The notes beneath the pieces are model-generated. The model did not search any database, was not told the origin of the DNA, and saw only the letters and a program-made list of their open reading frames with translations. Positions 5,331 through 55,220 of a DNA stretch of 64,000 nt are shown here, piece by piece (position 1 is the stretch's first letter; each line of letters begins with the position of its first letter). The position numbers and the translations under genes were made by a program. Origin of the DNA: Deltaproteobacteria bacterium (lineage in GTDB: Bacteria; Desulfobacterota; Desulfarculia; Adiutricales; JAFDHD01); the NCBI GenBank assembly GCA_019308995.1, contig JAFDHD010000002.1, forward strand, positions 2,946-66,945. The letters run 5' to 3'.

Positions 5331-6410
5331 TCACCGCTCCAGCTGAATCACACGGCCATCCTTCTCCTTTCGCCTCTTGTCCTCATACAGCATCTCATCC
5401 GCCCACTTGAGCAGGGAGGCTGGGTCGTGTATCCCAGGGTCCTGCGTCATGGCGATCCCGTAACTGAAAGTGACCGGGATGGTGATTCTATCCAGCATCA
5501 AGGGGTTTTTCTGCAAAAAGGTCTTGAGGCGCTCGGCTTTTTTGTGAGCCTCGCTGAGTGTCGTGGACGGGAGGATGATTACAAATTCGTCTCCGGCAAA
5601 CCTCGCCACAACGTCGGTTTCGCGGCTCAACGTCGCGAAATGCTTCCCTACGTATCTCAACACCTCGTCCCCGACATCATGGCCGTATCTGTCGTTGATA
5701 GTTTTAAAACCGTCCAGATCGAGAAGAACCAGCGATAAAGGGCTTTCGTAGCGAAGAGCGCGCTTGAACTCCCGCTCTAAAATAGACTCCATGACCCGGC
5801 GATTAAGCAGACCGGTGAGATGATCGTGGGAAGCCGCCAGCCTGAGCTTTTCGTGGGCCGCAACATTCGACAGGCACGACGAAATCTTAACGGTCAATCG
5901 CTCCAGCAGGGTCGTGTCCATGCCCGGACAGTAACGCGTGCTGGAAGGATCGCCGAGATTCAAGCTCCCGATAATCTCGTGGTTTAGTGTAATGGGCGCA
6001 ATCGCAACCGATTTGATCAGGTATTTCTCATGCGGCGGAAACAGCCGGTAAAAGTGGCTCAAGTCCTCGTTGAAAATCAAAGGTTTGGTATTATCCGCAA
6101 CGAGTTTGAGAAGCGTCTCCTTCTCGATGATATTTAACCTCTGTCTGAGCACCTCTGAGGAGGCCAGGTCCCGGATGAAATGAACAACATCGTTTTCGCC
6201 AATTAAAGAAATCCAGACATAAGGAATTTCGAATTTATCTCTGATCTCGGTGAGCAGCCTTTCAAACAGGTCCTTGAAATTGGTGATTGATAGAATGCTG
6301 ACTTCGATCTCAAAAAACTTGTGCGCAATCTCCTCGTTACGCCGCAGCCTTTCAATGAATTCATTTATGTCATTAATATCTTTAACGTTTTTACTGTTTG
6401 AAATAATCAC
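5331..6410 (-). CDS. Diguanylate cyclase (GGDEF domain, A-GDEF variant) with a DUF484/GAF-like N-terminal domain
   Basis: LTGLLNRR...LLDLDGFKTINDRYGHDVGDEVL...RFAGDEFVIILP. N-terminal part has IGSLNLGDPSSTRYCPGMDTTLLERL. GTG start. Confidence 0.85.
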   Translation of the reverse strand: MIISNSKNVKDINDINEFIERLRRNEEIAHKFFEIEVSILSITNFKDLFERLLTEIRDKFEIPYVWISLIGENDVVHFIRDLASSEVLRQRLNIIEKETLLKLVADNTKPLIFNEDLSHFYRLFPPHEKYLIKSVAIAPITLNHEIIGSLNLGDPSSTRYCPGMDTTLLERLTVKISSCLSNVAAHEKLRLAASHDHLTGLLNRRVMESILEREFKRALRYESPLSLVLLDLDGFKTINDRYGHDVGDEVLRYVGKHFATLSRETDVVARFAGDEFVIILPSTTLSEAHKKAERLKTFLQKNPLMLDRITIPVTFSYGIAMTQDPGIHDPASLLKWADEMLYEDKRRKEKDGRVIQLER

Positions 6411-27448: not shown

Positions 27449-28852
27449 ATGAGTGAGAAAAATATTGTTTATCCCTATGTGCCGAACTCGGTGAAGGAGA
27501 TTAAGGCCGAGATGCTCAGGGAAGTGGGCTTGGACGATGTGAAGGCCCTTTTCGCCGACATTCCCGAGCATTTGCAATTTCAGGGTAAACTAAACCTGCC
27601 GCAGCCGATCCTGGATGAGTATTCGATTAAAAGACATATGGAGGGGCTGCTCAACAAGAATAAAAACTGTTCAGAATATTTGAATTTTTTAGGCGCCGGG
27701 TGTGCGCAGCATTTCGTGCCCGCGGTTTGCGATGAGATCAACGGCCGGGGGGAATTTTTGACCGCCTACTCGGGCGGCACCTATGCCGACCATGGGAAGT
27801 ATCAGGCCCTCTTCGAATACGCCAGCCTGATGGCCGAACTGCTGGACATGGATCATTTGAGCTCGGTTCTTTATGATGGCGCGCAGGCCGCGGCGACATC
27901 CTTACGCATGGCCTCGAGAATGACCGGCCGGAATGAGGTCCTTCTCTCCCGGTCCATGAACCCCGAGGTTTTGATGGTCGTGCAGAACTACCTCCAAGGC
28001 ATTCGCGAGCCGCTGCTTAATATCAAGATGATTGATTTTGACCCTCAAACCGGGCTGCTTGATATGAACGACTTGGAATCGAAAATCTCCCCGGAAACCG
28101 CGGCCGTGTTCCTTGAAAATCCAAACTATTTCGGTTTGATCGAAGCCGACGCCGAAGCAATCGCCAAGATCGCCCGTGAAAGCGGAGCCGAGTTCATCGT
28201 GTATACCGACCCGATCTCTCTGGGGGCGATCGCTCCTCCGGCTCAGTACGGCGCGACCATTGCCTGCGGCGACATCCACAGCCTTGGGATGCACATGCAA
28301 AGCGGCGGCGGGCAGGCCGGGTTCATCGCGGTACACGACGATATGAGGTACATCGCAGAATTTAAGGACCTGATGTTCGGCCTGACCAAAACCTCTGAGG
28401 AGGGCGAGTATGGATTCGGATATGTCATGCCTCATCTGTCTTCCTACGCCACTCGCGAACAAGGCAAGGAGTACACGGGTACCAACTGCGCCCTCTGGGC
28501 CATTACCGCCGCAGTGTATCTTTCCCTAATGGGCCCCAAGGGGATGACGGAGATTGGCCAGGCAATCATGCAGAAAGCCCAATATGCAGCTAAAGGAATC
28601 TCAGAACTCAAGGGGATCGAGCTGGCTTTCAGCTCACCCTTTTTTAAAGAATTCTTGGTCAAATTCGATGGAACCGGAAAAACCGTGAGCCAGATTAACA
28701 AGGCCCTGCTTAAGTTAAGGATTTTCGGCGGGAAAGACATCTCTGGTGAATTCCCTGAACTCGGCCAGTGTGCTCTTTTCTGCGTCACAGAGATCATGAC
28801 CAGGGAAGATATTGATAGTCTGGTTACTGCCTTGGAAGGCGCGGTGAACTAG
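27449..28852 (+). CDS. Divergent glycine-dehydrogenase subunit-1-like protein (GcvPA paralog)
   Basis: Collinear with the GcvPA at 33358, but hallmark strings are replaced: AYSGGTYADHGKYQ versus TPYQPEMSQGTLQ, and REQGKEYTGTNCALWA versus REQHIRREKATSNICTN. Confidence 0.75.
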   Translation: MSEKNIVYPYVPNSVKEIKAEMLREVGLDDVKALFADIPEHLQFQGKLNLPQPILDEYSIKRHMEGLLNKNKNCSEYLNFLGAGCAQHFVPAVCDEINGRGEFLTAYSGGTYADHGKYQALFEYASLMAELLDMDHLSSVLYDGAQAAATSLRMASRMTGRNEVLLSRSMNPEVLMVVQNYLQGIREPLLNIKMIDFDPQTGLLDMNDLESKISPETAAVFLENPNYFGLIEADAEAIAKIARESGAEFIVYTDPISLGAIAPPAQYGATIACGDIHSLGMHMQSGGGQAGFIAVHDDMRYIAEFKDLMFGLTKTSEEGEYGFGYVMPHLSSYATREQGKEYTGTNCALWAITAAVYLSLMGPKGMTEIGQAIMQKAQYAAKGISELKGIELAFSSPFFKEFLVKFDGTGKTVSQINKALLKLRIFGGKDISGEFPELGQCALFCVTEIMTREDIDSLVTALEGAVN

Positions 28853-28911
28853 TCGGATTGTAAGGCGCGAAAGTTTTGAAAGACGGCTTGAAATAAAAAA
28901 GGAGAAAAAAG

Positions 28912-30471
28912 ATGCCGCGAGATAAAGAGACCCTGCTGCGGAAGTTCCATCAAGCTAAATGGGATGAACAGATCATCTTCGAGATGAGCGTCCCTGGCGA
29001 AAGAGGGATCCTGGTGCCGCAGGCCGGGGAGGAGATTAGCGCCATCATTGGCGATGGGCTGTCCGTAATTCCCGACCAGCTCAGAAGAAAGACCCCGCCC
29101 GCGCTGCCCGAGGTGGCCCAGGCGCGCGTCCTGAGGCATTTTATGCGGCTCTCTCAGGAAACCATGGGAGCGGACGTAAATATTGATATTGGAGAAGGAA
29201 CCTGCACCATGAAGTACAGCCCCAAGGTTCAGGAGCACCTGGCGGCCAGACATCCGGGTATGACCGCCATCCATCCTTTGCAGGACGACGAGACGATGCA
29301 GGGCATCCTGGAGATTTACTACAGGCTGGAACAGTTTCTAAAAGAGATTTCCGGGCTTGACTACTTCTGCTTTCAGCCCGGCGGAGGTAGCCAGGCCGTC
29401 TTTCTGAACGCATGCCTTGTCAGAGCATATCACGCCGACCGGGGCGATCACGAGCGCGACGAGATCATTACCACCATCTTTTCGCATCCGGTAAACGCCG
29501 CCGCGCCGGCCACGGCCGGGTACAAGGTCATCACCCTCATGCCGGACGAGAACGGGTACCCGACCCTGGAGGCCTTGAAAGAGGCCCTGTCTGAACGGAC
29601 GGCCGGGATTTTTATCACCAACCCTGAAGATACCGGCATTTACAATCCTGAGATTGCTGAATTCGTTAAGGCGGCCCACGATGCTGGCGCCTTGTGTTCC
29701 TACGATCAGGCCAATGCCAACGGCTTACTCGGCGTTACCCGGGCCAGGGAAGCCGGATTCGATCTTTGTCATTTTAACCTTCACAAAACCTTCTCCGCCC
29801 CACACGGCTGCATGGGTCCGGCCATGGGCGCTGTCGGTGTGAGGTCGGAGCTGGCCGGGTTTCTGCCTGTGCCTCGCGTCGAGTTTGACGGCCAGGGATA
29901 TTACTTGGACTATAATCGCCCCCAAAGCATCGGGCGGGTGAGGTCCTTCTTTGGCAACACCCCGCTCGCCTTGAAGACCTACACCTGGATCATGCAGCAT
30001 GGGGCTGAGGGCTTACGGGAGGTCGCCGAGTGCGCTGTGCTGAATAACAACTACATGGATAAGAAGATCAGGGAAATCCCGGGGGTGGTTGTTTATTACG
30101 CCAAAGATGAACGCAGACTGGAACAGGTTCGATACTCCTGGGAAAAACTGAAAGAAGACACCGGTGTGGACACCGAAGACGTTGAACGCCGGATGGCTGA
30201 TTACGGGTTGCAGCATTATTTCACCAGCCATCACCCGCAGGTGGTGCCAGAACCGTTTACGCCGGAACCCTGCGATTCCTATTCAAAGGATGACATTGAC
30301 GAGTTTGTAGCGGTGCTGCGTCAAATTTCCAGGGAGGCTTATGAAGAGCCGGACTTGGTCAAGAACGCGCCGCACCATTCCACTATCCATATGGTTCAGA
30401 ATCCGCTTATCTTTGAACTGGAAAAAATCGCCACCACCTGGCGGCAGGCAAAAAAGAAAGGACTGGTCTAG
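28912..30471 (+). CDS. Divergent glycine-dehydrogenase subunit-2-like protein (GcvPB paralog, PLP-lysine context retained)
   Basis: HFNLHKTFSAPHGCMGPAMGAVGV versus the canonical HLNLHKTFSTPHGGGGPGSGP. AAAAGGAGAAAAAAG-ATG. Confidence 0.75.
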   Translation: MPRDKETLLRKFHQAKWDEQIIFEMSVPGERGILVPQAGEEISAIIGDGLSVIPDQLRRKTPPALPEVAQARVLRHFMRLSQETMGADVNIDIGEGTCTMKYSPKVQEHLAARHPGMTAIHPLQDDETMQGILEIYYRLEQFLKEISGLDYFCFQPGGGSQAVFLNACLVRAYHADRGDHERDEIITTIFSHPVNAAAPATAGYKVITLMPDENGYPTLEALKEALSERTAGIFITNPEDTGIYNPEIAEFVKAAHDAGALCSYDQANANGLLGVTRAREAGFDLCHFNLHKTFSAPHGCMGPAMGAVGVRSELAGFLPVPRVEFDGQGYYLDYNRPQSIGRVRSFFGNTPLALKTYTWIMQHGAEGLREVAECAVLNNNYMDKKIREIPGVVVYYAKDERRLEQVRYSWEKLKEDTGVDTEDVERRMADYGLQHYFTSHHPQVVPEPFTPEPCDSYSKDDIDEFVAVLRQISREAYEEPDLVKNAPHHSTIHMVQNPLIFELEKIATTWRQAKKKGLV

Positions 30472-30516
30472 CCAGGTTGGACAAACAGGTAAGGGAGCCC
30501 TCTCCTTTAAAAGCTT

Positions 30517-31635
30517 ATGAAAAAATTGGGCGTCATCGTCAATCCGATTGCTGGCCTGGGCGGCCGCGTCGGACTCAAAGGAAGCGACAGCCTTGACATT
30601 ATAAACAAGGCCAGGCAGATGGGAGCGCGGCCGGAGTCTCCCCGGCGCACGGTCGAAGCGCTCAAATTAATCTTAAAACAAAAAAACCAGACCCAGGTCA
30701 TCACATACCCTGCTGAAATGGGTGAGGAAGAATGTCTCGCGGCTGGCTTTGAACCAGAGGTGATCGGGTCCATCATCAGTGGAGGCACCACCCCTGAAGA
30801 CACGCAAACCGCGGCCCGGGAAATGGCTTGCGCCGGTGTGAGCCTCATCCTTTTTGCCGGCGGGGACGGGACGGCTCGGAATATCTATGACGCTATCGGG
30901 GATAAGGTTCCCGTGCTTGGCATACCTGCCGGTGTGAAGATTCATTCCGCAGTCTACGCCGTAACACCCCGGAACGCCGGGGAAGTGGCGGCCATGTTCC
31001 TGCAAGGCAGACTGAAAAAACTGCGGGAGGCAGAGGTCATGGATATTGATGAGCAAGCCTTCCGGGAGGGCGTCGTTTCAGCCAGGCTCTATGGATACCT
31101 GCGCGTGCCTGAAGAGAGCCGGTATATTCAGCACGCAAAATCCAGAGGCGCTCTGTCCGGGGAGGAGACCCTGCAGGGAATAGCGGCGGATGTTATCGCT
31201 GGCATGAAGGAGGATGACAGCTACTATATCATCGGACCGGGCACCACCACCAGGGCCGTCATGGAACGTTTAGGGCTTAAGAATACGCTGCTTGGAGTTG
31301 ACGTTGTCCGCAGGCGTGCGCTGGTGGCGAGCGATGTTTCTGAAAATCAACTGCTGGATATCGTAAAAGATCACCAGGCCAAGATTATCGTGACGGTCAT
31401 TGGCGGCCAGGGCTATCTGTTCGGGCGTGGCAACCAGCAGATCAGCCCGCGTGTGATTCAGCAAGTGGGGAAAAAGAATATTGTGATTATCGCCACAAAA
31501 GAAAAACTGATCTCTCTATCAGGTCGGCCGCTGCTGGTGGACACCGGCGATGAGGAGCTGAACAAACAGCTCAGCAGCTACATGAGAGTGACCACCGGGT
31601 TCAAAGATTATGTCATGTACAGGGTGGGATACTGA
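30517..31635 (+). CDS. ATP-NAD kinase-family protein (COG3199-like)
   Basis: MKKLGVIVNPIAGLGGRVGLKGSD...FAGGDGTARN...GIPAGVKIHS (diacylglycerol/NAD-kinase fold motif GGDGT). Confidence 0.75.
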   Translation: MKKLGVIVNPIAGLGGRVGLKGSDSLDIINKARQMGARPESPRRTVEALKLILKQKNQTQVITYPAEMGEEECLAAGFEPEVIGSIISGGTTPEDTQTAAREMACAGVSLILFAGGDGTARNIYDAIGDKVPVLGIPAGVKIHSAVYAVTPRNAGEVAAMFLQGRLKKLREAEVMDIDEQAFREGVVSARLYGYLRVPEESRYIQHAKSRGALSGEETLQGIAADVIAGMKEDDSYYIIGPGTTTRAVMERLGLKNTLLGVDVVRRRALVASDVSENQLLDIVKDHQAKIIVTVIGGQGYLFGRGNQQISPRVIQQVGKKNIVIIATKEKLISLSGRPLLVDTGDEELNKQLSSYMRVTTGFKDYVMYRVGY

Positions 31636-31661
31636 AGCCGCACGGCGCGCCTGGAGCGACA

Positions 31662-32942
31662 ATGCAAAAAGATACCCAAAAAACGCTCCTCTATGACTGG
31701 CACATCTCCAGAGGGGCCAGCATGGGGAACTTTGGCGGCTATGACATGCCCCTCTGGTACCCTGCGGGCGCTAAAAATGAACACCTGGCCGTCCTCTTCA
31801 GCGCGGGCCTCTTCGACACCAGCCATATGGCCGCGGTCACGGCCGCCGGACCCGACGCCTTTGAACTGCTGCAGCGATGCTTCACCAGGGACCTGAGCCG
31901 TTATGTCAATAAAGATGAAAGTCCCTCAGCCGCAAGAAGCTGTGCCTATGGTGTGTTTTTGAACCAGGCCGGAGAAGTGATTGACGACGCCATCGTATAC
32001 CCCCTGAACCCCCAAACCTTTATGATCGTCGTTAATGCTGGCATGGGCGGGAAGATCGCCCGGCATTTATCGGACCATCTGGAGGGGGGTGACGTCCGGA
32101 TAACCGACCTGACCGGTCAACTGGGTAAATTAGACGTCCAGGGCCCCATGGCTGGCAAAGTCTTAGTCAGGATTCTAAAGGAGCCTCAAAAAGTGCTTGA
32201 AGATATGGCCTACTTTAAATACAAAGGCCATTATGATAAGGTTTCCCCTTCCGCTGAGATGGTTCTTTTAACCGACGGCACCCCGATCCTGCTTTCCCGC
32301 ACCGGGTATACCGGAGAATTCGGGTTTGAAATCTTTATCGAATTTGAACATTTGGCGCCTTGTTGGGAAATGATCATCAAAGCCGGAGAACCGTTTGAAA
32401 TGAGACCTTGCGGCCTGGCGGCCCGGGATTCACTCAGAGCCGGGGCCATGCTTCCTCTTTCCCATCAGGATATCGGCCCCTGGCTGTTTGTCAATAATCC
32501 GTGGACGTTTGCCTTGCCTTATAACGCCGACTTCACGGATTTCACCAAGCGTTTCATTGGTGACACGGCTCTTAAAAGAGCCGTTAAGGCGGAGTACACC
32601 TATGCCTTTGCGGGGTACGATCCCCGTAAGGTTTCGGTTCATGACCCGGCCCTGGTGCTGGATTTGGAAGACGATGAGTTAGGTCTGGTCATGACATGCG
32701 TTACGGACACGGCCATCGGAAGGATCAGGGGCCGGATATACAGCGTTGCCTCTCCCGACCTTCCGGGCGACGCCGTATTGCGGGGTTTAAGTTGCGGGTT
32801 TGTGAGGGTCAAAACCCGGCTGGATTATGGTCAAATGGTCAAGCTCAAAGATAGGCGGCGGGAGATAACGGTTGAAATCGTGGATGATATTCGCCCGAAT
32901 CGCACCGCCAACAAACCTATCAGCGAAATGTTACCAGGATAG
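31662..32942 (+). CDS. gcvT: Aminomethyltransferase (glycine cleavage T protein), long form
   Basis: [24 protein letters not shown]...LFDTSHM...[14 protein letters not shown]. At 426 aa it is longer than the usual roughly 365 aa. Confidence 0.85.
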
Positions 32943-32952
32943 GGAGCAGGTT

Positions 32953-33357
32953 ATGAAAGAAATTGACGAATTAGATTTGCCAGATGACGTGCGCTATACC
33001 GAGGAACATGAATGGGTCAGACATACAGGCGACAAGGTCCGGGTTGGCATCAGCGATTATGCCCAGGACCAGCTGGGTGACATTGTCTTTGTGGAGCTGC
33101 CCGAGGTGGGCGATACGTTTCATCAAGGGGAAGAGTTCGGGACTGTGGAGTCAACGAAGACTGTCACTGAGCTGTATATGCCTCTCAGCGGTGAGGTTCT
33201 GGCTGTCAATAGCGCCTTGGAGGATGTTCCGGAAAACGTGAACGAACATCCTTATGAGGAAGGCTGGATGATCGAGGCTGCGCCGAGCGAACCGGGAGAA
33301 TGGGAGTATCTCCTGACCAGGGAAGATTATCTGGACATATTAAAGGAGATGGAGTAA
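32953..33357 (+). CDS. gcvH: Glycine cleavage H protein
   Basis: YTEEHEWVR...[23 protein letters not shown]...[18 protein letters not shown] (lipoyl-lysine motif). AGGGAG RBS. Confidence 0.95.
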
Positions 33358-34689
33358 ATGCGGTTTCTGCCTCACACTGATGAAGATATCGCCTCCATGC
33401 TTGATTTAGTGGGTCTGAGCGGCCTGGAGGATCTTTTTGCGATGATCCCGGAGGATTGCCGCCGTCCCAGTGATCTCAGCCTGCCTCAGCCCCTGACCGA
33501 ATGGGAATTACAGGACCTGATGATGGAGTCCTCCGGCCTGATGGCCGTGCGGCCGGAGTACAAGGTTTTTATCGGGGCCGGGAGCTACGAGCATTTTATC
33601 CCGGCGTCGGTGACCCATCTCGCGGGCCGTTCCGAGTTCGTGACGCCGTACACCCCGTACCAGCCGGAAATGAGTCAGGGCACGCTTCAGGCGATTTACG
33701 AGTATCAGACGCTGGTAGCCCGTTTGCTGGGCCTGGAGGTGGCCAATGCCTCCCTGTATGACGGCGCCTCCGCCCTGGCCGAGGCGATACTAATGGCTGT
33801 TCGAATAACCGGACGGAAAAAGGTCGCTCTTTCAAGCCTGGTTCATCCCCTGTATCGGGAAGTCGTTCAAACCTACCTCAAGCCAGTCGGTCACAGCGTA
33901 TTGGAACTTCCTTATCTGGAAAACGGTTTAACCGACCTTTCGAAACTGGAGGGAGCCGAAAATCTGGCAGCGGTCGCGCTCCAATCCCCCAATTTTTTCG
34001 GATGCATCGAGAATCTTCAGACCGCGGGGGAACTGGCGCACCAAGGAGGCGCTCTTTTCATTACCTGCTTTACCGAACCAATGGCTTACGGGCTTTTGAA
34101 AAATCCAGGATGCCAGGGGGCGGATATTGCGTGCGGAGAGGGACAAAGTTTCGGCATCCCTGAGTCCTACGGCGGCCCGGGGCTGGGGATATTCACCACT
34201 AAAATGAAATACGTGCGCAACATGCCCGGCCGGCTGGTGGGTCGGACGTCGGATGCCGAAGGCAGACAGGGGTTTGTCCTCACCCTGGCTACCCGGGAGC
34301 AGCACATCCGCCGCGAAAAAGCGACCTCCAACATCTGCACCAACAGCAGCCTCTGCGCCCTCACGGCGGCTATCTACCTGGCTTCGGCCGGAGGGGCCGG
34401 TCTGCGGGAGCTGGCTGAATTGAACCATGACAAGGCCGAGTATCTCAAGCGTGAATTGAAAAAGGCCGGATGCGTTATCAGCTTTGAAAGCCCGACCTTC
34501 AACGAGTTCGTGGTGAAATACCCGGATAACTTTGAAGCCGCGCATGATGGCCTGCTTCGGAAAAAAATTGTGCCCGGCCTGTCCCTGGCGCCTTACTTTC
34601 CGGAGCTTAAGGGTCACTACCTGTTGTGCGTTACCGAAACCAAGAGCAAGACGGACATGGACGCTCTGGTAGGGGAGGTGGCGTCATGA
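33358..34689 (+). CDS. gcvPA: Glycine dehydrogenase (decarboxylating) subunit 1
   Basis: FIGAGSYEHFIP...TPYTPYQPEMSQGTLQAIYEYQ...REQHIRREKATSNICTN. Confidence 0.95.
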   Translation: MRFLPHTDEDIASMLDLVGLSGLEDLFAMIPEDCRRPSDLSLPQPLTEWELQDLMMESSGLMAVRPEYKVFIGAGSYEHFIPASVTHLAGRSEFVTPYTPYQPEMSQGTLQAIYEYQTLVARLLGLEVANASLYDGASALAEAILMAVRITGRKKVALSSLVHPLYREVVQTYLKPVGHSVLELPYLENGLTDLSKLEGAENLAAVALQSPNFFGCIENLQTAGELAHQGGALFITCFTEPMAYGLLKNPGCQGADIACGEGQSFGIPESYGGPGLGIFTTKMKYVRNMPGRLVGRTSDAEGRQGFVLTLATREQHIRREKATSNICTNSSLCALTAAIYLASAGGAGLRELAELNHDKAEYLKRELKKAGCVISFESPTFNEFVVKYPDNFEAAHDGLLRKKIVPGLSLAPYFPELKGHYLLCVTETKSKTDMDALVGEVAS

Positions 34690-36143
34690 AAGAACTTCCA
34701 GGAACCACGGGTCTGCTGATTAACGAGCCGTTACTCTGGGAAAAAGGAAGAGCGGGAAGATGCGGGTTTTCTTTTCCCCGGCGCGATGTCGAGCCTGCCT
34801 CTCTGGACGAAGCGCTCATCGGCCAGGTTCCCGACCTGCCCGGCCTGAGCGAGGTGGATGTGGTCCGTCATTATACCCGGCTCTCCCAGTGGAACTTCTG
34901 CGTGGACACCGGCATGTACCCCCTTGGTTCATGCACCATGAAATACAACCCCAAAATCAATGAAAAGATGGCGCGTTTAACCGGCTTTGCCACTGCGCAT
35001 CCGCTGCTTCCAGGCCGATGCTCCCAGGGGGCGATGCGGCTGATGTTTGAACTCGAACGTCTCCTGGCGGAGATAACCGGTATGAACGCCGTAACCCTGC
35101 AGCCTGCGGCCGGGGCACAGGGGGAGCTGACCGGCATGCTCATTATTCATGCTTTTCATGAAAAAAACGGCCAGGGTCGGTCGAAAATCATCATCCCGGA
35201 TACGGCCCATGGCACCAACCCTGCCAGCGCGGCCCTGTGCGGCTTTCGCGCCGTGCCCGTTAAGTCCAACGAACAGGGAATCCTGACCCCGGAAACGATC
35301 GCTTCCGTCATGAACGAGGATACGGCCGGAATCATGGTCACCAATCCCAATACCCTCGGCCTTTTTGAAGAGAACATCAAACAGATCGCCGAAATCGTCC
35401 ATTTAAGAGGCGGGCTGGTATACTGTGACGGCGCGAACCTGAACGCGGTCATGGGAATCGTGGACATGGGCGCTATGGGGGTGGACCTCCTCCATCTGAA
35501 TCTCCACAAGACCTTTTCAACGCCTCATGGTGGAGGCGGGCCCGGTTCCGGGCCGTTATGCGTCAACAAACAGCTCGAGCCCTTCCTCCCCGTGCCTCGA
35601 CCGGTCCAGGAAAACGGAAGCTTTCGCCTCTCCGAAGACTTCCCGGATACCATCGGCAGGATGCACGCCTTTTATGGCAATTTCGGCGTCATGATCAAGG
35701 CCTACAGCTATATCAGGAGCCTGGGTCCTGACAACCTTAAAAAAGCCAGCCAGCTCGCCGTCTTGAACGCCAACTATGTCAAGGAAAGCCTGAAGGGGGT
35801 GTTCCACCTGCCTTTTGATCGCCCCTGTATGCATGAATGCGTCTTTACGGATCAGTTCCAAAGGGCCTTCAAGGTTTCGACCCTGGACATGGTCAAACGC
35901 CTGATGGACTATGGCTTTCACCCGCCCACGGTCTACTTTCCGCTGGTGGTGAACGGCGCGATTATGATCGAGCCCACGGAAACAGAATCCAAAGAGGACC
36001 TGGACCTTTTTATTGAAGCCTGCAAGGCCATTGTGAGCGAGGCGGAAGAGAAGGCGCCTCTTCTGCATGAAGCGCCTCATAAATGCATAAGAGGCAGGCT
36101 GGATGAAACCAAAGCCGCCAGGCAGCCGTGTCTTACAGGTTGA
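34686..36143 (+). CDS. gcvPB: Glycine dehydrogenase (decarboxylating) subunit 2
   Basis: ATGA overlap with gcvPA. LGSCTMKYNPK...HLNLHKTFSTPHGGGGPGSGP. Confidence 0.95.
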   Translation: MKELPGTTGLLINEPLLWEKGRAGRCGFSFPRRDVEPASLDEALIGQVPDLPGLSEVDVVRHYTRLSQWNFCVDTGMYPLGSCTMKYNPKINEKMARLTGFATAHPLLPGRCSQGAMRLMFELERLLAEITGMNAVTLQPAAGAQGELTGMLIIHAFHEKNGQGRSKIIIPDTAHGTNPASAALCGFRAVPVKSNEQGILTPETIASVMNEDTAGIMVTNPNTLGLFEENIKQIAEIVHLRGGLVYCDGANLNAVMGIVDMGAMGVDLLHLNLHKTFSTPHGGGGPGSGPLCVNKQLEPFLPVPRPVQENGSFRLSEDFPDTIGRMHAFYGNFGVMIKAYSYIRSLGPDNLKKASQLAVLNANYVKESLKGVFHLPFDRPCMHECVFTDQFQRAFKVSTLDMVKRLMDYGFHPPTVYFPLVVNGAIMIEPTETESKEDLDLFIEACKAIVSEAEEKAPLLHEAPHKCIRGRLDETKAARQPCLTG

Positions 36144-36170
36144 GGGGTTTAAGAAGAGGGGAAAGCAAGA

Positions 36171-36695
36171 ATGAAAGAATTTGCGATTTTGTTTTTATTG
36201 GGACCGGACCGGCCGGGAATCGTGGATGAGGTTTCCACCTTCCTTTTCGCGCGCCAGGCAAACATTGAGGACAGCCGCATGGCGATCATGGGCGGATGCT
36301 TTTCCATCATGACGCTCATCTCATGCACCAAGAGGCAGCTGGAGACGATCAAGGCGGAATTGGGCCAGCTTGAGAATCTGGGGTTTGAAGTTTCAATCCA
36401 TGAGGCCAAAGACCCGGAAGACCTTCCCGCGCTGGCAGAACTGCCTTTGAAGCTTGAACTAAAGGCCATGGATCACCCGGGTATCATGCAAAAAGTAGTT
36501 CATATTCTGCACGAACATAACATCAATATTCAATCCTTGAACACAAGGGTCACCAGGGCCCCGCTCTCGGGATCGCCCCTGTTCAATCTGATTCTGGAAG
36601 CAGGCGTCCCGGCTGAAGAATTCATGGCCGCCATTAAGGAGGAGCTGACAGGCCTGGCCGCGGAGATGAACCTTGATCTGAGTTTTAAAACATGA
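36171..36695 (+). CDS. Tandem ACT-domain protein (GcvR-like regulator)
   Basis: FLLGPDRPGIVDEVSTFL and a second ACT domain (AMDHPGIMQKVVHILHEH). The layout matches glycine cleavage system protein R. Confidence 0.7.
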   Translation: MKEFAILFLLGPDRPGIVDEVSTFLFARQANIEDSRMAIMGGCFSIMTLISCTKRQLETIKAELGQLENLGFEVSIHEAKDPEDLPALAELPLKLELKAMDHPGIMQKVVHILHEHNINIQSLNTRVTRAPLSGSPLFNLILEAGVPAEEFMAAIKEELTGLAAEMNLDLSFKT

Positions 36696-36767
36696 GGTCT
36701 TCAGCCCGGCCAAATCATTTGGAGATACGATCTTTCCTTATGGAAGAGGATTGAAGACAACCCATCA

Positions 36768-38225
36768 ATGCCCATCAAAGTGACAATCCTGGGATCAGGC
36801 CCTGGCGGATACATCGGCGCTATCCGGGCGGCGCAGCTTGGGGCCCAGGTTACCCTGATAGAGAACAACAACCTGGGAGGCACCTGCCTGAACCGGGGCT
36901 GCATCCCGACCAAGACCCTTAAGGCCACGGCCGAAGCCCTGGAAACGACTCACCGTCTCCATGAATTCGGGGTAGTGCTCGAAGGAGAGGTTCGGCCGGA
37001 CATCCAGGCCATTATGAACCGCAAGCAGAAGGTCGTGGATACGCTGGTCACCGGCATCCGCAAGATTATTGACAGCTACAGGATCAGGTTTATTGAAGGC
37101 ACCGGCTATGTTATGGATCCGGGACGCGTCCGGGTCCAAACTAAGGAGGGCCGGTCCATCGAGATCACCGGGGATAAACTCATCCTGGCCACCGGCTCTA
37201 ATCCTTTGAACTACCCGGATTTTCCTGTTGACGGGCAGAAGATTATTTCCTCAAACGAGGCCTTGCTGCTTGACGACATTCCGGAGGAAATGGTGATCAT
37301 TGGCGGAGGAGTGGTCGGGGCCGAGTTCGGTTTCATCTTCAATGCTCTGGGCACTAGGGTCACCATTGTCGAGGCCCTTGACAGAGTGGTGGGGCTGCCG
37401 TCGGTGGACCCGGATAGCAGCAGAATCCTGGCGCGGGAGATGAAAAAAAAGAAAATCAAGCTCTTTCTAAACAAGACGGTGATAGGGTCTGAGGATGCGC
37501 CAGGGCATAAGGTCAGGCTCACCTTAGGGCCTTCCCCTTTTCTTAAGGAAGTAAAAGAAAAAGACAAAAAAGAGATTGTTCTTGAGGCCGACAGGGTCCT
37601 CGTCTCCATTGGCCGGGAATTGAACACCAAAAATATGGGCCTGGAGGAACTGGGCCTGGAGCTGCACCCCCGGGACTGGATCGTGGCCAATGAAAAAATG
37701 GAGACCAACATCCCGGACGTATATGCAGTCGGGGATATCCTGGGCCCGGAAAAGATCATGCTCGCGCACGTCGCCTCAGCCGAGGCCTTGACAGCGGTGG
37801 AAAACTGCATGGGCGCACAAAAGGTCATGAATTACGACGCGGTTCCGACCGGTATCTTTACTTCCCCGGAAATGGCTGACGTCGGTCTGACCGAAATCCA
37901 GGCTCAAGAACGCGGCCTGAACTTTCGCTCCGATTCTTTTCTTTTCCGCGGCCTGGGCAGACCTCAGGCCATGGGCGAAATCACCGGTCAGGTCAAGATT
38001 ATCTCTGAAGCCAAGACCGGGAAGATCCTGGGTGTCCACATCATCGGCCCCCATGCCACGGACCTCATCGCTGAAGCTACCCTGGCCATGAAGCTTGGGG
38101 CCACAACAGAAGACCTGGCCTCAACCATTCACGTCCACCCCAGCCTGTCTGAGGCTGTCATGGAGGCGGCCCATGCCGCCCTCGACGCCCCCCTCCATGC
38201 ACCCGCCCGGAAGCAAAAGACCTAA
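36768..38225 (+). CDS. lpdA: Dihydrolipoyl dehydrogenase
   Basis: ILGSGPGGYIGAIRAAQLG...GGTCLNRGCIPTK redox-active disulfide, and HVHPSLSE. Confidence 0.95.
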   Translation: MPIKVTILGSGPGGYIGAIRAAQLGAQVTLIENNNLGGTCLNRGCIPTKTLKATAEALETTHRLHEFGVVLEGEVRPDIQAIMNRKQKVVDTLVTGIRKIIDSYRIRFIEGTGYVMDPGRVRVQTKEGRSIEITGDKLILATGSNPLNYPDFPVDGQKIISSNEALLLDDIPEEMVIIGGGVVGAEFGFIFNALGTRVTIVEALDRVVGLPSVDPDSSRILAREMKKKKIKLFLNKTVIGSEDAPGHKVRLTLGPSPFLKEVKEKDKKEIVLEADRVLVSIGRELNTKNMGLEELGLELHPRDWIVANEKMETNIPDVYAVGDILGPEKIMLAHVASAEALTAVENCMGAQKVMNYDAVPTGIFTSPEMADVGLTEIQAQERGLNFRSDSFLFRGLGRPQAMGEITGQVKIISEAKTGKILGVHIIGPHATDLIAEATLAMKLGATTEDLASTIHVHPSLSEAVMEAAHAALDAPLHAPARKQKT

Positions 38226-42693: not shown

Positions 42694-42773
42694 GCTTTCC
42701 TTTGCTAAAGGTATAAATATAAAAAGACCCGGCAAATCATCCGAGTCTTTTTTATACTCATTTTTAAGGGGCG

Positions 42774-43100
42774 TCAATAGGAACAGGTCGTGCCGCAGGA
42801 AGAACAGCCGTCGCCGAGCAAGGGTTTCCCCGGGATGACTGAAAACCCGGCGCGGATACCCTGGTCAATAAAATCAATGCTGACCTTTTCAATCATGTTA
42901 AGCAGCTCTTTATCTATCATGTAAGTGACCCCGTTATATTCCTTTGTCTCGTCCGTGTCTTTCGGCTCATCCAGAGCTAATGCCAGAGACGGACCGCCTC
43001 ACCCGCCCTGGTCAAGAAAGACGCGAATGGGCGAGCTGGTTTTATTCGCCTCCAGGTGTTCTCTGACCTTCTCATTTGCCTTTGTGCTTACCTCGATCAT
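42774..43100 (-). CDS. HesB/IscA-like Fe-S assembly protein with in-frame UGA (selenocysteine at codon 34)
   Basis: AAGGAGAG RBS then ATG at 43100. Reads MIEVSTKANEKVREHLEANKTSSPIRVFLDQGG-U-GGPSLALALDEPKD...GDGCSSCGTTCSY. The TGA at 42999..43001 sits at the conserved Cys of the GGC(S/G)G IscA motif, and the frame stays open for 74 more codons. Confidence 0.75.
42951..42994 (-). promoter_or_regulatory. Candidate bacterial SECIS hairpin
   Basis: From +5 to +48 after the UGA. Outer stem GUCCGU/ACGGAC, and apical stem GCUC/GAGC closing a UGGAU loop at +26..+30. Confidence 0.5.
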
Positions 43101-43285
43101 GATCTCTCCTTATTCCCCTAAGCTATCAGGTTTCATTTTGATAGTTAATATAAGACCCCGGAAGACCGGCGTCAAGGGCAGGCTAATTTTTATTGGGACC
43201 TGAACGATTGGACTGGGGCCGTAAGGAGTGTTTAGCTGGCGCCGGCCTCTTCCAGAGGGAAGGAGTTTATACCAGAATTATTTTC

Positions 43286-43993
43286 TCAAGCAGATTGTCT
43301 TAATATCTGGTGAGCCTTCTGATCAAGGTGGTCGAAAAAATCATGGTTCATAGGCTCCAGCCTGCGGTAGGAGCAGTCTAGAGCGTTTTCCGGTTTGAAG
43401 AGCTGTAACCGCCAATCCGGAACCCCGCTCAACTCTTTAGCCAGGGTCAGGATGTCGCTTTCCGTATGAAGCCCGGGCACAACCGTCGTTCTGAGGATAT
43501 AAGGAAGGCCTGACGATTTGAGGAGGGCCAGGCTATCCTTGACCTTGTTTAGAAATCCTGGTCGGCCCGCGGCTCGGGCATAGGCAAGCTCGTTCAGAGG
43601 GGCCTTGACGTCCATGGCCACATGATCGAGCAGGCCCCGGTCCAAAAGGTCGGCCAGAACCTCGGGCCGGCTGCCGTTGGTATCCAGCTTGACTTTAAAC
43701 CCCGCGGCCCTGATGTCCTGAATGAAGTCTGGCAGGCCGGGGCTTATGGTCGGCTCCCCGCCCGAAATGACCACTCCGTCAATCCAATTATGGAATACCT
43801 TGAGCCGGGCTTTTATTACATCCCAATCTAAAGTGGGGTACTCGTCCGGGTTGAGGACCAGGCCGTAATTGTGGCAGAAGGGACAGCGAAAGTTGCAGCC
43901 TGCCAGAAAAATAACCGAAGACACCTGACCCGGCCAGTCCAGAAAGGAGGACTCCAGGAATCCTTTGATTTTTATGCTAAATTGACTAGCCAC
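43286..43993 (-). CDS. nrdG: Anaerobic ribonucleotide reductase activating protein (radical SAM)
   Basis: FLAGCNFRCPFCHN (CxxxCxxC) and ISGGEPT. Confidence 0.9.
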   Translation of the reverse strand: MASQFSIKIKGFLESSFLDWPGQVSSVIFLAGCNFRCPFCHNYGLVLNPDEYPTLDWDVIKARLKVFHNWIDGVVISGGEPTISPGLPDFIQDIRAAGFKVKLDTNGSRPEVLADLLDRGLLDHVAMDVKAPLNELAYARAAGRPGFLNKVKDSLALLKSSGLPYILRTTVVPGLHTESDILTLAKELSGVPDWRLQLFKPENALDCSYRRLEPMNHDFFDHLDQKAHQILRQSA

Positions 43994-44007: not shown

Positions 44008-44274
44008 TTAAGATTGCTCATTCATGGCGGCAATGTGCCGTTCCAGAAAACGGCGCACAGGCAGCTCGTACTTGACATGCGTACTGTCGTCCAGGACCAG
44101 AATAGGCAGCGCCCCCTTTTCCACTAATTCCACCAGTTCATACCAGGCCAGATTAGCCAGCACTTCAGGGTCGTCCGCTTTGATGACCTCGATGTTGATG
44201 CCCAGCTTGTTCAGGTCAAAGGCGCGCTTGATGTTCTCGCACTTCCCGCAATTCTCTTTTGTGAACAGAGTCAC
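44008..44274 (-). CDS. Glutaredoxin/NrdH-like small redoxin
   Basis: MTLFTKENCGKCENIK (CxxC at the thioredoxin-fold position). Lies between nrdD and nrdG. Confidence 0.65.
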   Translation of the reverse strand: MTLFTKENCGKCENIKRAFDLNKLGINIEVIKADDPEVLANLAWYELVELVEKGALPILVLDDSTHVKYELPVRRFLERHIAAMNEQS

Positions 44275-44304: not shown

Positions 44305-46488
44305 TTACCCGGTAGCAGACTCGGTCGCCCGGGCGGGCTGCGGTTTACCAAACACCGCCTGGTTTCGGTAACGATCTCTGAGTTCCCCTAACTTGCCTTT
44401 ATTCCAGGATGAGAGCTTGGTAAAGTAACCGGTAATCCGGGTAATGCCTTCCAGGTCGGTTGATCCGCAGTAAGGACATTCATCAAGCAGTCCCCGCGCC
44501 GTGCGATAGCAGCTCCGGCAGCTTGTAAACTCCGGCGAAAAGGCCACCTGATCGTTCTTGGTCCAGCGAAAGGTCTTGGTAACGAAGTTGGCCAGGGACT
44601 CAGGAGAAGGTTGCGCTTCGCCCAGAAAGATGTGCGTGATGGCGCCAGCTTCAATGAGGGGATGAAAGAGGCCTTCCAGCTTGATCCGCTCGATAGGATT
44701 CATCTCGGCCCCGATGTTGAACAAGGTTGAGTTCGTGTAGTAGACCTCGTTTTTTTCAAGATCGCCTTTGATGACCTCCCTGGTCTGTTCGGGAAAACGT
44801 TCCAGGTCCAGCTTGGCGAAACGGTAGGCCGTACTTTCGGCCGGGGTCTGTTCCAGCACAAAGTGCACCCCGTATTTCTCACGATACTTGTCCGCCAGGA
44901 TCTTCATGTTGGCAATGACGTTCAGCCCGAACCGAATGGCCTCATCCGACTCGTGGAGCTGGGTGCCGATGTGGTACTGGATCATCTCGTTGAGGCCGAT
45001 CATACCAATGAGATAGCTGGCTCGATGCATCCTGAGGTATTGTTCGCCGTCATGGTTCATACACAGCAGAGAAAGGGGACTTTTTTCTCCCGCCGCCAGA
45101 AGCTTCTCGATAAAGGCCTTCTTCTGCAGGTGCGCCTTCACGGCTAGCTCTATCTGCTCGCGGAGAAGGGCCATCAGCTTGGTATCGTCCCGGTCGGCCC
45201 GAAAGGCCAAGCGAGGCAGGTTGATGGTCACATTCTGTATGGCGGAATAACGCATGCGCCAGGGGATCTTGGCGTCTTCAAGGTCGCTCTGCTCTAGTTT
45301 GAAGGACAACCGGCAGCATTCGGAGATCTTAGCAGTGTTGCCTCGATCAAAGACAAAGTATGTATTGCCTTTTTCCGAGGCGACCTGGCAGATCAAGTTC
45401 AGAAATTCCTCATGACCCGGGGTCTTGAAAAATTTCTCCGTAATATGAACCAAAGGCTTGGGGAAAAAGAACGGGCGTCCCGCCCCATCCCCTTCAAGAT
45501 AGGTCTCAAAGAGGGCCCAAATAAATCGCTGCGCCTCCTTTTCAAAATCGCCATAGGTCAAATACTGTTTTTCTTCCCTGGTAGCCGGGTCTTCGTTCTC
45601 AACATATTCTCCCCCCGGGCCGATGGCCGGGACATCAACGAAATGATCCGGGACCTCCCAGTAGAGGTTGATGTCAGAAAAGATGGCCTGGCCGCCGCGG
45701 GCCACAGCCTGCTGAGAAAATTCGAAGATGAGCATCTGGGCCAGCTGCTTCACCTGGCGGTCATTGAGTTCAAGCAGATAGGGGGCGAAAAAGAGATTGA
45801 CCGCGTCCCACCCGATGGCCCCGGCAAAATTAGACTGCAAGGCCGCGGCAAACTTGACCATATGAGCCAAAAGAACCTCGGCATGCCGGGCTGGCTTGGC
45901 CAGGGAAAGGGCGTTGGGCAGGGATAGACCAAATTTCTTAATATACTCCAGTGATTGACCTGAACAGTATGGCCGGTCAATGAAGCCAAGGTCGTGCAAG
46001 TGAATATCACCAGCCAGGTGAGCGTCACTCACCTCCCGGTCAAAGACATTGAGGAAGGCGAACTCCTTCTTGATGTTTTCGGCCAGGGTCAGGTTGGTCG
46101 CCTCCGGACCGTGAGGCATGTTGGCGTTTTCCTTGTTCTGCTGCATGATAAGCTGTTTGACGTCATGGATAGGCATCCCCAGCCGGGTGTGCATGCGTCG
46201 TTCATCCTCCAGTCCCAGTTCAATCAACTTGGCGTTGACCAGTTCCCTTATCAGAGGCGCAGAAACAAATTTGATCTTGACCTTGCGGATGATCTCCTCC
46301 ACCTCGCGGCCCACCAGATCGGCCGTGTCGTGGTCAATCATGGTCTCCTTGAGAAGGGCGTCCACGATGCGCTGACGATTCCACCCCTTAAAATCATCAT
46401 CAGAGGATCTTACAAACACAGCGATGTCTGTTGCATCCTCAAACTGAACTCCGACCGGACCGTAATCCGTTTCTTGGAGACTGGCCAT
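44305..46488 (-). CDS. nrdD: Anaerobic ribonucleoside-triphosphate reductase (class III)
   Basis: N-terminal ATP-cone, C-terminal CRSCYRTARGLLDECPYCGS zinc site, and the glycyl-radical motif TRITGYF. Confidence 0.95.
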   Translation of the reverse strand: MASLQETDYGPVGVQFEDATDIAVFVRSSDDDFKGWNRQRIVDALLKETMIDHDTADLVGREVEEIIRKVKIKFVSAPLIRELVNAKLIELGLEDERRMHTRLGMPIHDVKQLIMQQNKENANMPHGPEATNLTLAENIKKEFAFLNVFDREVSDAHLAGDIHLHDLGFIDRPYCSGQSLEYIKKFGLSLPNALSLAKPARHAEVLLAHMVKFAAALQSNFAGAIGWDAVNLFFAPYLLELNDRQVKQLAQMLIFEFSQQAVARGGQAIFSDINLYWEVPDHFVDVPAIGPGGEYVENEDPATREEKQYLTYGDFEKEAQRFIWALFETYLEGDGAGRPFFFPKPLVHITEKFFKTPGHEEFLNLICQVASEKGNTYFVFDRGNTAKISECCRLSFKLEQSDLEDAKIPWRMRYSAIQNVTINLPRLAFRADRDDTKLMALLREQIELAVKAHLQKKAFIEKLLAAGEKSPLSLLCMNHDGEQYLRMHRASYLIGMIGLNEMIQYHIGTQLHESDEAIRFGLNVIANMKILADKYREKYGVHFVLEQTPAESTAYRFAKLDLERFPEQTREVIKGDLEKNEVYYTNSTLFNIGAEMNPIERIKLEGLFHPLIEAGAITHIFLGEAQPSPESLANFVTKTFRWTKNDQVAFSPEFTSCRSCYRTARGLLDECPYCGSTDLEGITRITGYFTKLSSWNKGKLGELRDRYRNQAVFGKPQPARATESATG

Positions 46489-53306: not shown

Positions 53307-55220
53307 ATGGCCAAAATGCCCAAGAAGGCTGTGGTGATCGGCATGGATGCCGCATCCCCAACGTTTATATCGCAGTATGTCGAGGAAGGCGTTCTTCCCA
53401 ATTTCAAGAAACTGATTGACGGCGGAGTCATGGCGGAGCACTGCCTGGTTCCCTTCCCCACGGTGACCCCGCCGAACTGGACCACCATCGTTACCGGGAG
53501 CTGGGCGGGTACCCACTGCATCACCGATTTTCACGTTCACAATCCCGGCGATCCGCTGCACAAAATTCATCAGGGCTTTGACGCCAATGAATGCAAGGCG
53601 GAATTTATCTGGGAGAGAGCGGCCAAGGCCGGCAAAAAAAGCATCGTCTTCAACTATCCCTCTTCCTGGCCTCCGCGCGTCAAGGAGGGGGTCATCATGC
53701 TCGGGGGCGGAGGGCTTACCCCCGGGGAATGGCGCCGGCCATTTCGAGGCCTGAACTCTGGAATCAATTTCTCCGGTGAACATCTCTTTACCACCGAGAT
53801 CTTACCCGGCGCGGTGCGGGTTAAGTTCGAGGAGGCTGAGGACTGGGAGAATGTCCCGGAGTCTCAGGGCGAAGAGGACCTGGAAGCGGTGGCGGGGCTG
53901 AATTTTCAGCAGGCCATGGAAGAGCCAGCCCCGACCTCCTGGTATGTCCTGGCGCAGGATACTCAGGGCGACGGTTATGACAAGGTCACGGTCTCCCCGA
54001 GCCGGGACTATAGCGAAGCCTTTTTTACTATTGGCGTGGGCGAGTGGAGCCAGAAGATCACCACGACCCTGAAGCTTAAAAACGGTGAAGAAAAGGTGGT
54101 TCATTTCAGGGCCAAGCTCCTGGAGCTTTCCGATGACGCTGAGGATTTCAGGCTCTACTTCACTTCCCTGGGCCAGGAAAGCGGCTGGTCCTTTCCGGAA
54201 GAGGTCTGCACTGAAATCAAGTCCAAGGAAGGGGTCATGGCCAATAACGGCGGATACGTGGCCTACACCCTGGAATGGATTGACCTCGACACTTATATGG
54301 AGGTCACGAACTGGCAGAATATCTTCTACGCCGACGCCGTGGAGTATCTGCTGAAAAACAAGGAGTGGGACCTTTTCTTCATGCACGCCCATGCCCCGGA
54401 CTGGTTCTACCACGCCGCCATTACAGACATGGAGCCTCTTGTCACCAAGGACGAGGAGAAGGTCAAAAAAACGAGGAAGGCGGACCGGAGCCTGTACCAG
54501 AGCCTGGACCGGATGCTGGGGAGGATCATGGAGGCGGCCGGAAAGGACGCCCTGATCATAATCGTTTCAGACCACGGCGCCACAGCTAACGGCCCGACCG
54601 TCAACCCGAACGAGATCATGGAAAAGGCGGGCTTGCTGGTATTCGAGGAGGTCGAGAAGGCTAAAGGAGGAGATGCTAGCGATATCATGAGCGCTAAAAT
54701 CGTCCCGCGATTTCCCAATAGACCAAATCACAAGAAATCAAAGGTCATCCCCCAGAGGGAGATTCACGTCTATATCAACCTCAAAGGCAGAGACCCGGAC
54801 GGGATCGTGGAACCCGAGGACTACGGAAACGTCCAGCGGCAGATCATTGACGCCCTGCTGACCTGGAAGGACCCGCAGACTGGCACAAGGCCCATCGCCA
54901 TGGCCCTCTCCAAGCAGGACGCCCGTATCCTGGGCCTGTATGGCGATTATGTCGGCGATGTCATCTATGCGCTTTACCCTGAATTCGGAGGCCAGCACGG
55001 CCAGCAGCTCCCGGCGTCATCGTACGGTATCGGCGACCAGCGCTCGGTCATGATCCTGAATGGGCCGGGTCTGAAAAAGGGGTACAAGATGCAAAGGACC
55101 ATGTGGTTGACCGACATCGTGCCCACGCTCAGCTACGCCCTTGACCTGCCCGTGGCTGACACCGTGGAAGGCGCTGTCGTGTACCAGATCTTTGAAGACC
55201 CGAATTTTAAACTCAAGTAA
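53307..55220 (+). CDS. Alkaline-phosphatase-superfamily enzyme (type I phosphodiesterase / nucleotide pyrophosphatase-like)
   Basis: VVIGMDAASP...FPTVTPPNWTTIVTG (nucleophile Thr region)...IIVSDHG. AAAGGAGGAATTAGTT-ATG. Confidence 0.75.
   Translation: MAKMPKKAVVIGMDAASPTFISQYVEEGVLPNFKKLIDGGVMAEHCLVPFPTVTPPNWTTIVTGSWAGTHCITDFHVHNPGDPLHKIHQGFDANECKAEFIWERAAKAGKKSIVFNYPSSWPPRVKEGVIMLGGGGLTPGEWRRPFRGLNSGINFSGEHLFTTEILPGAVRVKFEEAEDWENVPESQGEEDLEAVAGLNFQQAMEEPAPTSWYVLAQDTQGDGYDKVTVSPSRDYSEAFFTIGVGEWSQKITTTLKLKNGEEKVVHFRAKLLELSDDAEDFRLYFTSLGQESGWSFPEEVCTEIKSKEGVMANNGGYVAYTLEWIDLDTYMEVTNWQNIFYADAVEYLLKNKEWDLFFMHAHAPDWFYHAAITDMEPLVTKDEEKVKKTRKADRSLYQSLDRMLGRIMEAAGKDALIIIVSDHGATANGPTVNPNEIMEKAGLLVFEEVEKAKGGDASDIMSAKIVPRFPNRPNHKKSKVIPQREIHVYINLKGRDPDGIVEPEDYGNVQRQIIDALLTWKDPQTGTRPIAMALSKQDARILGLYGDYVGDVIYALYPEFGGQHGQQLPASSYGIGDQRSVMILNGPGLKKGYKMQRTMWLTDIVPTLSYALDLPVADTVEGAVVYQIFEDPNFKLK

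Follow-up and report, generated by a model that had tools for sequence, protein, structure and literature searches.

The minus-strand frame at 43100..42774 is very probably a functional selenoprotein gene of the NCBIfam family NF038090, in which an in-frame UGA is recoded to selenocysteine (Sec) and the SECIS element lies within the coding sequence. The gene is part of a 64-kb stretch of DNA, here called the window, that was analysed over its whole length. The call of a coding sequence for a 108-residue IscA/HesB-like selenoprotein at 42774..43100 (terminal TGA included) draws on the reading frame, profile HMMs, alignment to IscA structures and purifying selection. The Sec codon, residue 34 at 42999..43001, is placed by its coincidence with the first cluster-ligand Cys position and by the TGA and TGC codons found there in relatives.

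Reading frame and protein family

The minus strand from 43100 to 42774 reads as 108 sense codons. TGA occurs once inside the frame, at 43001..42999, and closes it at 42776..42774. A ribosome-binding site, AAGGAGAG (43104..43111, minus strand), was read directly from the sequence; three nucleotides (atc) separate its end from the ATG at 43100, and its GGAG core ends 5 nt upstream of that ATG. The translation is MIEVSTKANE...DQGGUGGPSLALALDEPKD...GDGCSSCGTTCSY. An earlier sequence-only reading had proposed this ribosome-binding site, start codon and 108-codon frame with one interrupting TGA, and reading the sequence again bore it out; the peptides given for the two sides of the TGA (...IRVFLDQGG before it, GGPSLALALDEPKD... 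and ...GDGCSSCGTTCSY after it) are read in the same way. The same reading held that stop-to-stop ORF calling would miss the gene, and the ORF list indeed yields two fragments only, of 33 aa (42999..43100) and 48 aa (42774..42920). One mRNA would thus carry two UGAs 74 codons apart, the first a Sec codon with a SECIS and the second a stop without one.

For HMM scoring of the product, U was entered as Cys. The product scores 123.3 bits against NF038090 (IscA_HesB_Se; cutoff 85, E = 4.1e-36), with residues 1-101 aligned to positions 1-101 of the 101-position model, and 34.6 bits against Pfam PF01521 (Fe-S_biosyn), above the gathering threshold of 26.3. These two scores uphold the assignment to the IscA/HesB-like family. 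The other models fall below their cutoffs: TIGR01911 (HesB_rel_seleno) at 41.0 against 66.35 bits, TIGR00049 at 53.1 against 58.8, and the equivalog models for IscA (36.4 against 150.6), SufA (38.4 against 136.2) and ErpA (31.8 against 117).

In a search against solved structures, the residue opposite U is Cys35 in E. coli IscA (SGCSG; 1r94, 1s98), and in Aquifex AQ_1857 (GGCSG; 1nwb) it is the corresponding Cys. E-values against the IscA structures ranged from 2.5e-7 to 7e-6, with homology over about 100 residues. The claim that the TGA falls exactly at the first cluster-ligand Cys is therefore correct, and aligning the U-containing product with the IscA/HesB families, which had been suggested as a check, both places U on the ligand Cys and carries the product over the NF038090 cutoff. 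The residues U-G-G-P at this site match the UxGP motif of TIGR01911-type proteins (table in PMC13188914), and the TGA occupies the Sec/Cys position, the first ligand, within the GG-x-[GS]GPS pattern by which NF038090 is recognised.

The C-terminus reads C-S-S-C-G-T-T-C, a CxxCxxxC arrangement of C99, C102 and C106, and not C-G-C-G. The canonical A-type ligand set C-x(n)-C-G-C is accordingly absent, the first ligand being U. Disorder is expected for this tail with its probable ligands. Among the retrieved NF038090-type members, 83 of 84 have 3-4 Cys among their last 14 residues, a pattern that includes the window's protein; the Cys-rich tail as an NF038090 trait is a description drawn here from those retrieved members.

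Gene neighbourhood and possible function

Upstream on the same strand lie nrdD (46488..44305; TIGR02487, 429.7 bits), an 88-aa CxxC glutaredoxin-like gene (44274..44008; Pfam Glutaredoxin, 25.1 bits) and nrdG (43993..43286; TIGR02495, 185.9 bits). The glutaredoxin-like protein between nrdD and nrdG begins at a GTG, has an N-terminal C-G-K-C of the NrdH/glutaredoxin-like kind, and has counterparts of 83-85% identity in loci L010 and L016. A sigma-70-like sequence, TTGACG-17 nt-TATATT (43147..43175, minus strand, 10 of 12 consensus matches), falls within the 185-nt spacer that separates nrdG from the selenoprotein gene and is suggested as its promoter; the 900-nt region holds one such site against about 0.9 expected by chance. 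An intrinsic-terminator-like hairpin with a 12-pair stem and a T run was found by sequence match 22 nt past the stop (42721..42752, minus strand). With a promoter-like site and a terminator of its own, the gene appears to be monocistronic. The position 3' of nrdD, the glutaredoxin-like gene and nrdG on the same strand, as first described, is confirmed, but it amounts to synteny within the lineage, the selenoprotein gene having a promoter-like site of its own, and an operon is not evident. In L001, the 95%-identical metagenome relative, the gene's stop and the shared terminator are separated by some 185 bp more of AT-rich DNA (350-540, compared with 42773-42753 in the window); the extra sequence could be a small insertion/deletion polymorphism or a miniature mobile element.

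The order nrdD-grx-nrdG-hesB, with ilvBNC beyond, is found again in L010 and L016 alone, the two closest relatives. Elsewhere 35 loci have a Macro-domain protein as neighbour, 24 a zinc-ribbon protein and 23 a SagB-type dehydrogenase, and an enoyl-CoA hydratase recurs as well. No isc, suf, nif or other Fe-S assembly genes recur near family members at the 80 loci, and the family neighbourhood gives no functional lead.

From its sequence the protein is assigned, with moderate confidence, a role as an Fe-S carrier. Sec would replace the first Cys ligand that A-type carriers use for the Fe-S cluster, and the remaining ligands would probably be C99, C102 and C106 of the CxxCxxxC tail. An Fe-S cluster (or Fe) would be bound transiently and transferred through the Se ligand.

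A different function for the same gene product, which leaves the gene call unaffected, is possible although unlikely. The protein would be a real selenoprotein but not an Fe-S carrier, its selenol working with the C-terminal Cys as a centre for redox or chalcogen (S/Se) relay, such as that of a selenenyl-sulfide redox protein or of a persulfide/selenium carrier. The fold and the position of U agree with IscA proteins of solved structure, U falling on their cluster-ligand Cys, nearly all members keep three Cys within their last 14 residues, as suits metal ligation, and the Sec is surrounded by U-G-G-P with neither UxxC nor CxxU; these features speak against a relay, even though the canonical A-type carrier models all stay below cutoff, the tail is CxxC/CxxxC-rich with Ser and Gly and is not CGCG, and Fe-S assembly genes do not recur at the 80 loci. 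A relay would also agree with the general picture, in which redox proteins make up the majority of bacterial selenoproteins and the literature calls what HesB-like ones do unclear.

It is distinctly improbable that the Sec-containing IscA-like protein was recruited beside nrdD-grx-nrdG in the window, L010 and L016 for loading or repairing the oxygen-labile [4Fe-4S] cluster of NrdG. If true, this would for the first time give a HesB-like selenoprotein a concrete client and function.

The UGA codon and the SECIS element

Relatives were surveyed with one genome per species. The survey detected 555 relatives, and codon counts refer to the best 80 of the 555, nearly all of them Thermodesulfobacteriota/Desulfobacterales MAGs. 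The codon aligned with the internal TGA is TGA in 75 of these 80 and TGC in the other five, with no other codon present, which puts the share of Sec forms in this subfamily at about 94% among the Desulfobacterales reference species examined. TGA also stands at the Sec codon in the metagenome relatives L001-3 and L007-9. Across the best 80 of the 555 the protein is equally conserved before and after the TGA, and neither frameshifts nor further stops occur. Downstream of the TGA, dN is 0.09-0.31 with dS saturated (against L010, L016 and L007), and purifying selection acts on both sides of the codon. Orthologs with a genuine stop and no conservation beyond it, named in the sequence-only reading as evidence that would count against recoding, were not seen among the best 80 of 555: conservation continues past the TGA.

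In the homologs returned by a protein search, the site is W in seven full-length entries and Cys in two; three more start just past it. The DNA behind the stored W is TGA in every case checked; the W residues arise because gene callers read through TGA on short contigs. The W-bearing entries are the public metagenome proteins P0001, P0002, P0005, P0007-P0009 and P0011 (loci L001 and L007-L009), of which P0001 runs past the true TGA stop to 121 aa against the 108 expected, and P0003, P0010 and P0012 are N-terminally truncated at the TGA. Such Trp calls and truncations are a systematic database artefact for selenoproteins.

The sequence-only reading had described an imperfect hairpin that follows the UGA at +5..+48 and has the loop UGGAU at +26..+30. 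RNAfold reproduces it exactly (42951..42994, minus strand) with a 6+3-bp lower stem and an MFE of -17.5 kcal/mol. Its apical part, +21..+35 after the UGA (42964..42978, minus strand), was delimited by a 76-sequence alignment and codon analysis. In the window this part is AGCUC-UGGAU-GAGCC: 42977..42974 pair with 42968..42965 in a 4-bp stem, UGGAU at 42973..42969 is the loop, and A·C at 42978/42964 is a mismatch. The family consensus is GGCUC-UGGA(U/C)-GAGCC, formed by the codons for Ala-Leu-Asp-Glu-Pro. Since the window's Leu+7 codon is UUA, the fifth pair becomes A·C and the upper stem is a minimal 4 bp; a mismatch at the fifth pair is confined to the window and the near-identical L001-3 (A·C) and to L058 (A·A).

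In a dinucleotide shuffle test over 52 nt the window fold gave z = -1.43, and 19 of the 200 shuffles folded equally well; a 65-nt frame gave z = -0.06. Because this energy is unremarkable against shuffled sequence, the evidence for a SECIS is taken from the comparison with relatives and not from the single-sequence fold. A gap-free alignment of 63 nt from the UGA was made of 76 distinct Sec-form sequences. RNAalifold returned one consensus helix, columns 24-28 with 34-38, which is paired in 99.2% of cells and has a consensus energy of -8.4 kcal/mol for the apical helix alone. The stem has 5 bp in 73 of the 76 relatives, and the loop is U-G-G-A-U/C in all 76. Variation in the stem is limited to 11 G-C to G-U changes and 3 mismatches, and no compensatory double changes were found in the apical stem among the 76 sequences. 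With the stem nearly invariant, covariation was unusable, and synonymous sites and the contrast between Sec and Cys forms were analysed instead.

Both point to constraint on the RNA. Within the hairpin the synonymous sites are invariant in all 76 sequences at Ala+8 (GCT), Leu+9 (CTG) and Glu+11 (GAG); just outside it, the equally conserved Pro+3, Ser+4, Ala+6 and Pro+12 draw on every codon available to them (entropies 1.7-2.0 bits). In all six distinct Cys-form sequences Ala+8 is encoded by GCG or GCC and the codon at +12 does not specify Pro, by which two of the five pairs are lost. The constraint on the RNA is therefore present only together with UGA, as a SECIS predicts. The lower stem of the window hairpin lacks conservation in the family, with 61% of cells paired. 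A UUG at +7 associates weakly with an A at +36, which extends the stem (Fisher p = 2.6e-4, ignoring phylogeny).

Bacterial SECIS elements have a loop of 3-9 nt, an upper stem of 4-16 bp and an MFE of -7.5 kcal/mol or lower; the first or second loop nucleotide is G, usually with G or U after it, and 16-37 nt lie between UGA and loop (PMC13188914 Fig. 2). The window hairpin lies within all of these limits, having a 5-nt loop that begins U-G-G, a 4-bp stem, a spacing of 25 nt and the energy of -17.5 kcal/mol. Its loop UGGAU departs from the commonest sub-pattern, N1-G-[G/U]-N-N2 with N1 and N2 paired, and the hairpin has no match in Rfam. Of the structure first put forward as a SECIS, the apical part stands, being conserved, specific to Sec forms and within the bacterial limits, but the rest of +5..+48 is not conserved. 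The accompanying check for a stable fold likewise divides: the energy passes the bacterial SECIS limit but stays near that of shuffled sequence.

By analogy with characterised bacterial systems, the UGA at 43001..42999 would be decoded as Sec by SelB·GTP·Sec-tRNASec, which would bind the apical hairpin and bring Sec to the ribosome. At the terminal UGA, which has no hairpin, translation would end. The conserved UGA/SECIS pair and the lineage of the organism argue for SelB-dependent Sec insertion in it, and Deltaproteobacteria are the most selenoprotein-rich bacteria, several of them with HesB-like selenoproteins (PMC1794560). No selA, selB, selD or tRNA-Sec was found in the 64-kb window, where there were no tRNA or Rfam hits and 20 large ORFs were scanned, and no tRNA-Sec was found near family members at 89 loci. 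At L046, in a Desulfobacterales MAG, ARAGORN reports a 97-nt 'tRNA-Gln(ctg)' (5767-5863) about 140 nt upstream of the family gene; this long call is probably a false positive.

That the internal TGA is a genuine stop, with the locus a pseudogene or a pair of unrelated 33-aa and 48-aa ORFs and the downstream similarity a relic, is highly unlikely. Standard ORF calling does halt at the TGA, Sec machinery was not seen within the 64-kb window, and the hairpin energy is unexceptional, but a relic would hardly keep its TGA in 75 of 80 reference species (the best 80 of 555) with full-length conservation beyond it, a dN far below dS, and neither frameshifts nor extra stops. The Sec-form-specific hairpin with frozen synonymous sites 3' of the TGA, and the passage of the joined protein over the curated NF038090 cutoff along the entire model, also stand against it.

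Elsewhere in the window TGA serves as the ordinary stop of 8 of the 22 other identified genes, at family-typical lengths, among them nrdG and, from the second set, both gcvP subunits. The tandem gcvP sets (gcvPA 27449-28852 and gcvPB 28912-30471; gcvPA 33358-34689 and gcvPB 34626-36143) lie on the plus strand within 27449-38225, interleaved with an NAD-kinase-like gene, gcvT, an ACT-domain (GcvR-like) ORF and lpd. Examination of 142 TGA-joined frames gave no second selenoprotein gene in the window. The frame at 36171..38225, the only striking one, was rejected because it joins an ACT-domain gene to an lpd that has a start of its own; the two share a frame across the TGA at 36693, an ordinary stop that mimics a selenoprotein. 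The remaining TGA-joined frames are antisense to real genes or overlap them. Two further plus-strand ORFs were noted. The 732-aa ORF at 60454-62652 matches hydrazine dehydrogenase / HAO-type multihaem proteins only weakly and in part, at 80 bits where the cutoff is 900, and may be an octahaem-type oxidoreductase; the 637-aa ORF at 53307-55220 has no NCBIfam match at E <= 1e-10 and is overlapped by antisense ORFs of 160 and 203 aa.

An alternative code (table 4 or 25) that reads TGA as Trp or Gly, the reading that the seven database homologs with W would suggest, can be set aside with near certainty: those W residues come from gene callers on short contigs, with P0001 overrunning its true stop, TGA ends the selenoprotein gene itself as well as the 8 of 22 other identified genes, homologs exchange the codon for Cys and never for Trp or Gly codons, and the lineage is Thermodesulfobacteriota, which use the standard bacterial genetic code.

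Relation to known selenoproteins and A-type carriers

Descriptions of HesB-like selenoproteins go back to the mid-2000s. The statement that the family is not new agrees with the literature on them and with the curation of NF038090 by NCBI; since the family is long described and curated, the finding is already known in kind and is an annotation correction. Its practical value lies in the correct annotation of a gene otherwise split into 33 aa and 48 aa, and the near-invariant 15-nt SECIS core is usable as a simple detector of the subfamily. The locus brings no new leverage on the role of Se at the A-type carrier ligand position. HesB-like selenoproteins are an established family of bacteria (PMC1794560) and archaea, frequent in Deltaproteobacteria, with the motif UxGP (PMC13188914), and a HesB-like selenoprotein has been labelled with 75Se in Methanococcus maripaludis (PMC11097638).

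The hairpin resembles the bacterial SECIS, of which E. coli fdhF is the prototype, in lying inside the coding sequence just 3' of the UGA and in its small loop with G at positions 2-3, but its primary sequence is unrelated to that of the fdhF element. Its extreme conservation within the protein family comes from its overlap with the conserved A-L-D-E-P peptide.

With IscA, SufA and ErpA (PF01521; 1r94, 1s98, 1nwb, 2d2a and 1x0g) the protein shares the conserved first ligand position. Unlike them it has Sec at ligand 1, a CxxCxxxC tail and no isc/suf operon setting. The HesB-like selenoproteins of TIGR01911 are nearer to it in fold family, in Sec for the first ligand Cys, in the UxGP motif and in the anaerobe/Deltaproteobacteria setting; the window protein differs in a C-terminal Cys-rich tail that lies outside the 92-position model. 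Its 41 bits against the TIGR01911 cutoff of 66.35 mark it as belonging to a sister subfamily. The assignment to the known HesB-like selenoprotein family thus holds in that a Sec-for-Cys family of this kind was known, but the membership is in NF038090, below the TIGR01911 cutoff. Compared with other NF038090 proteins, that of the window ends in ...CSY and not ...CSC, has an extra Cys99 and has a SECIS stem one pair shorter. It has in common with them the GG-U/C-GGPSLALALDEP core and the Cys/Ser/Gly-rich tail, and its relatives are overwhelmingly Sec forms in Desulfobacterales.
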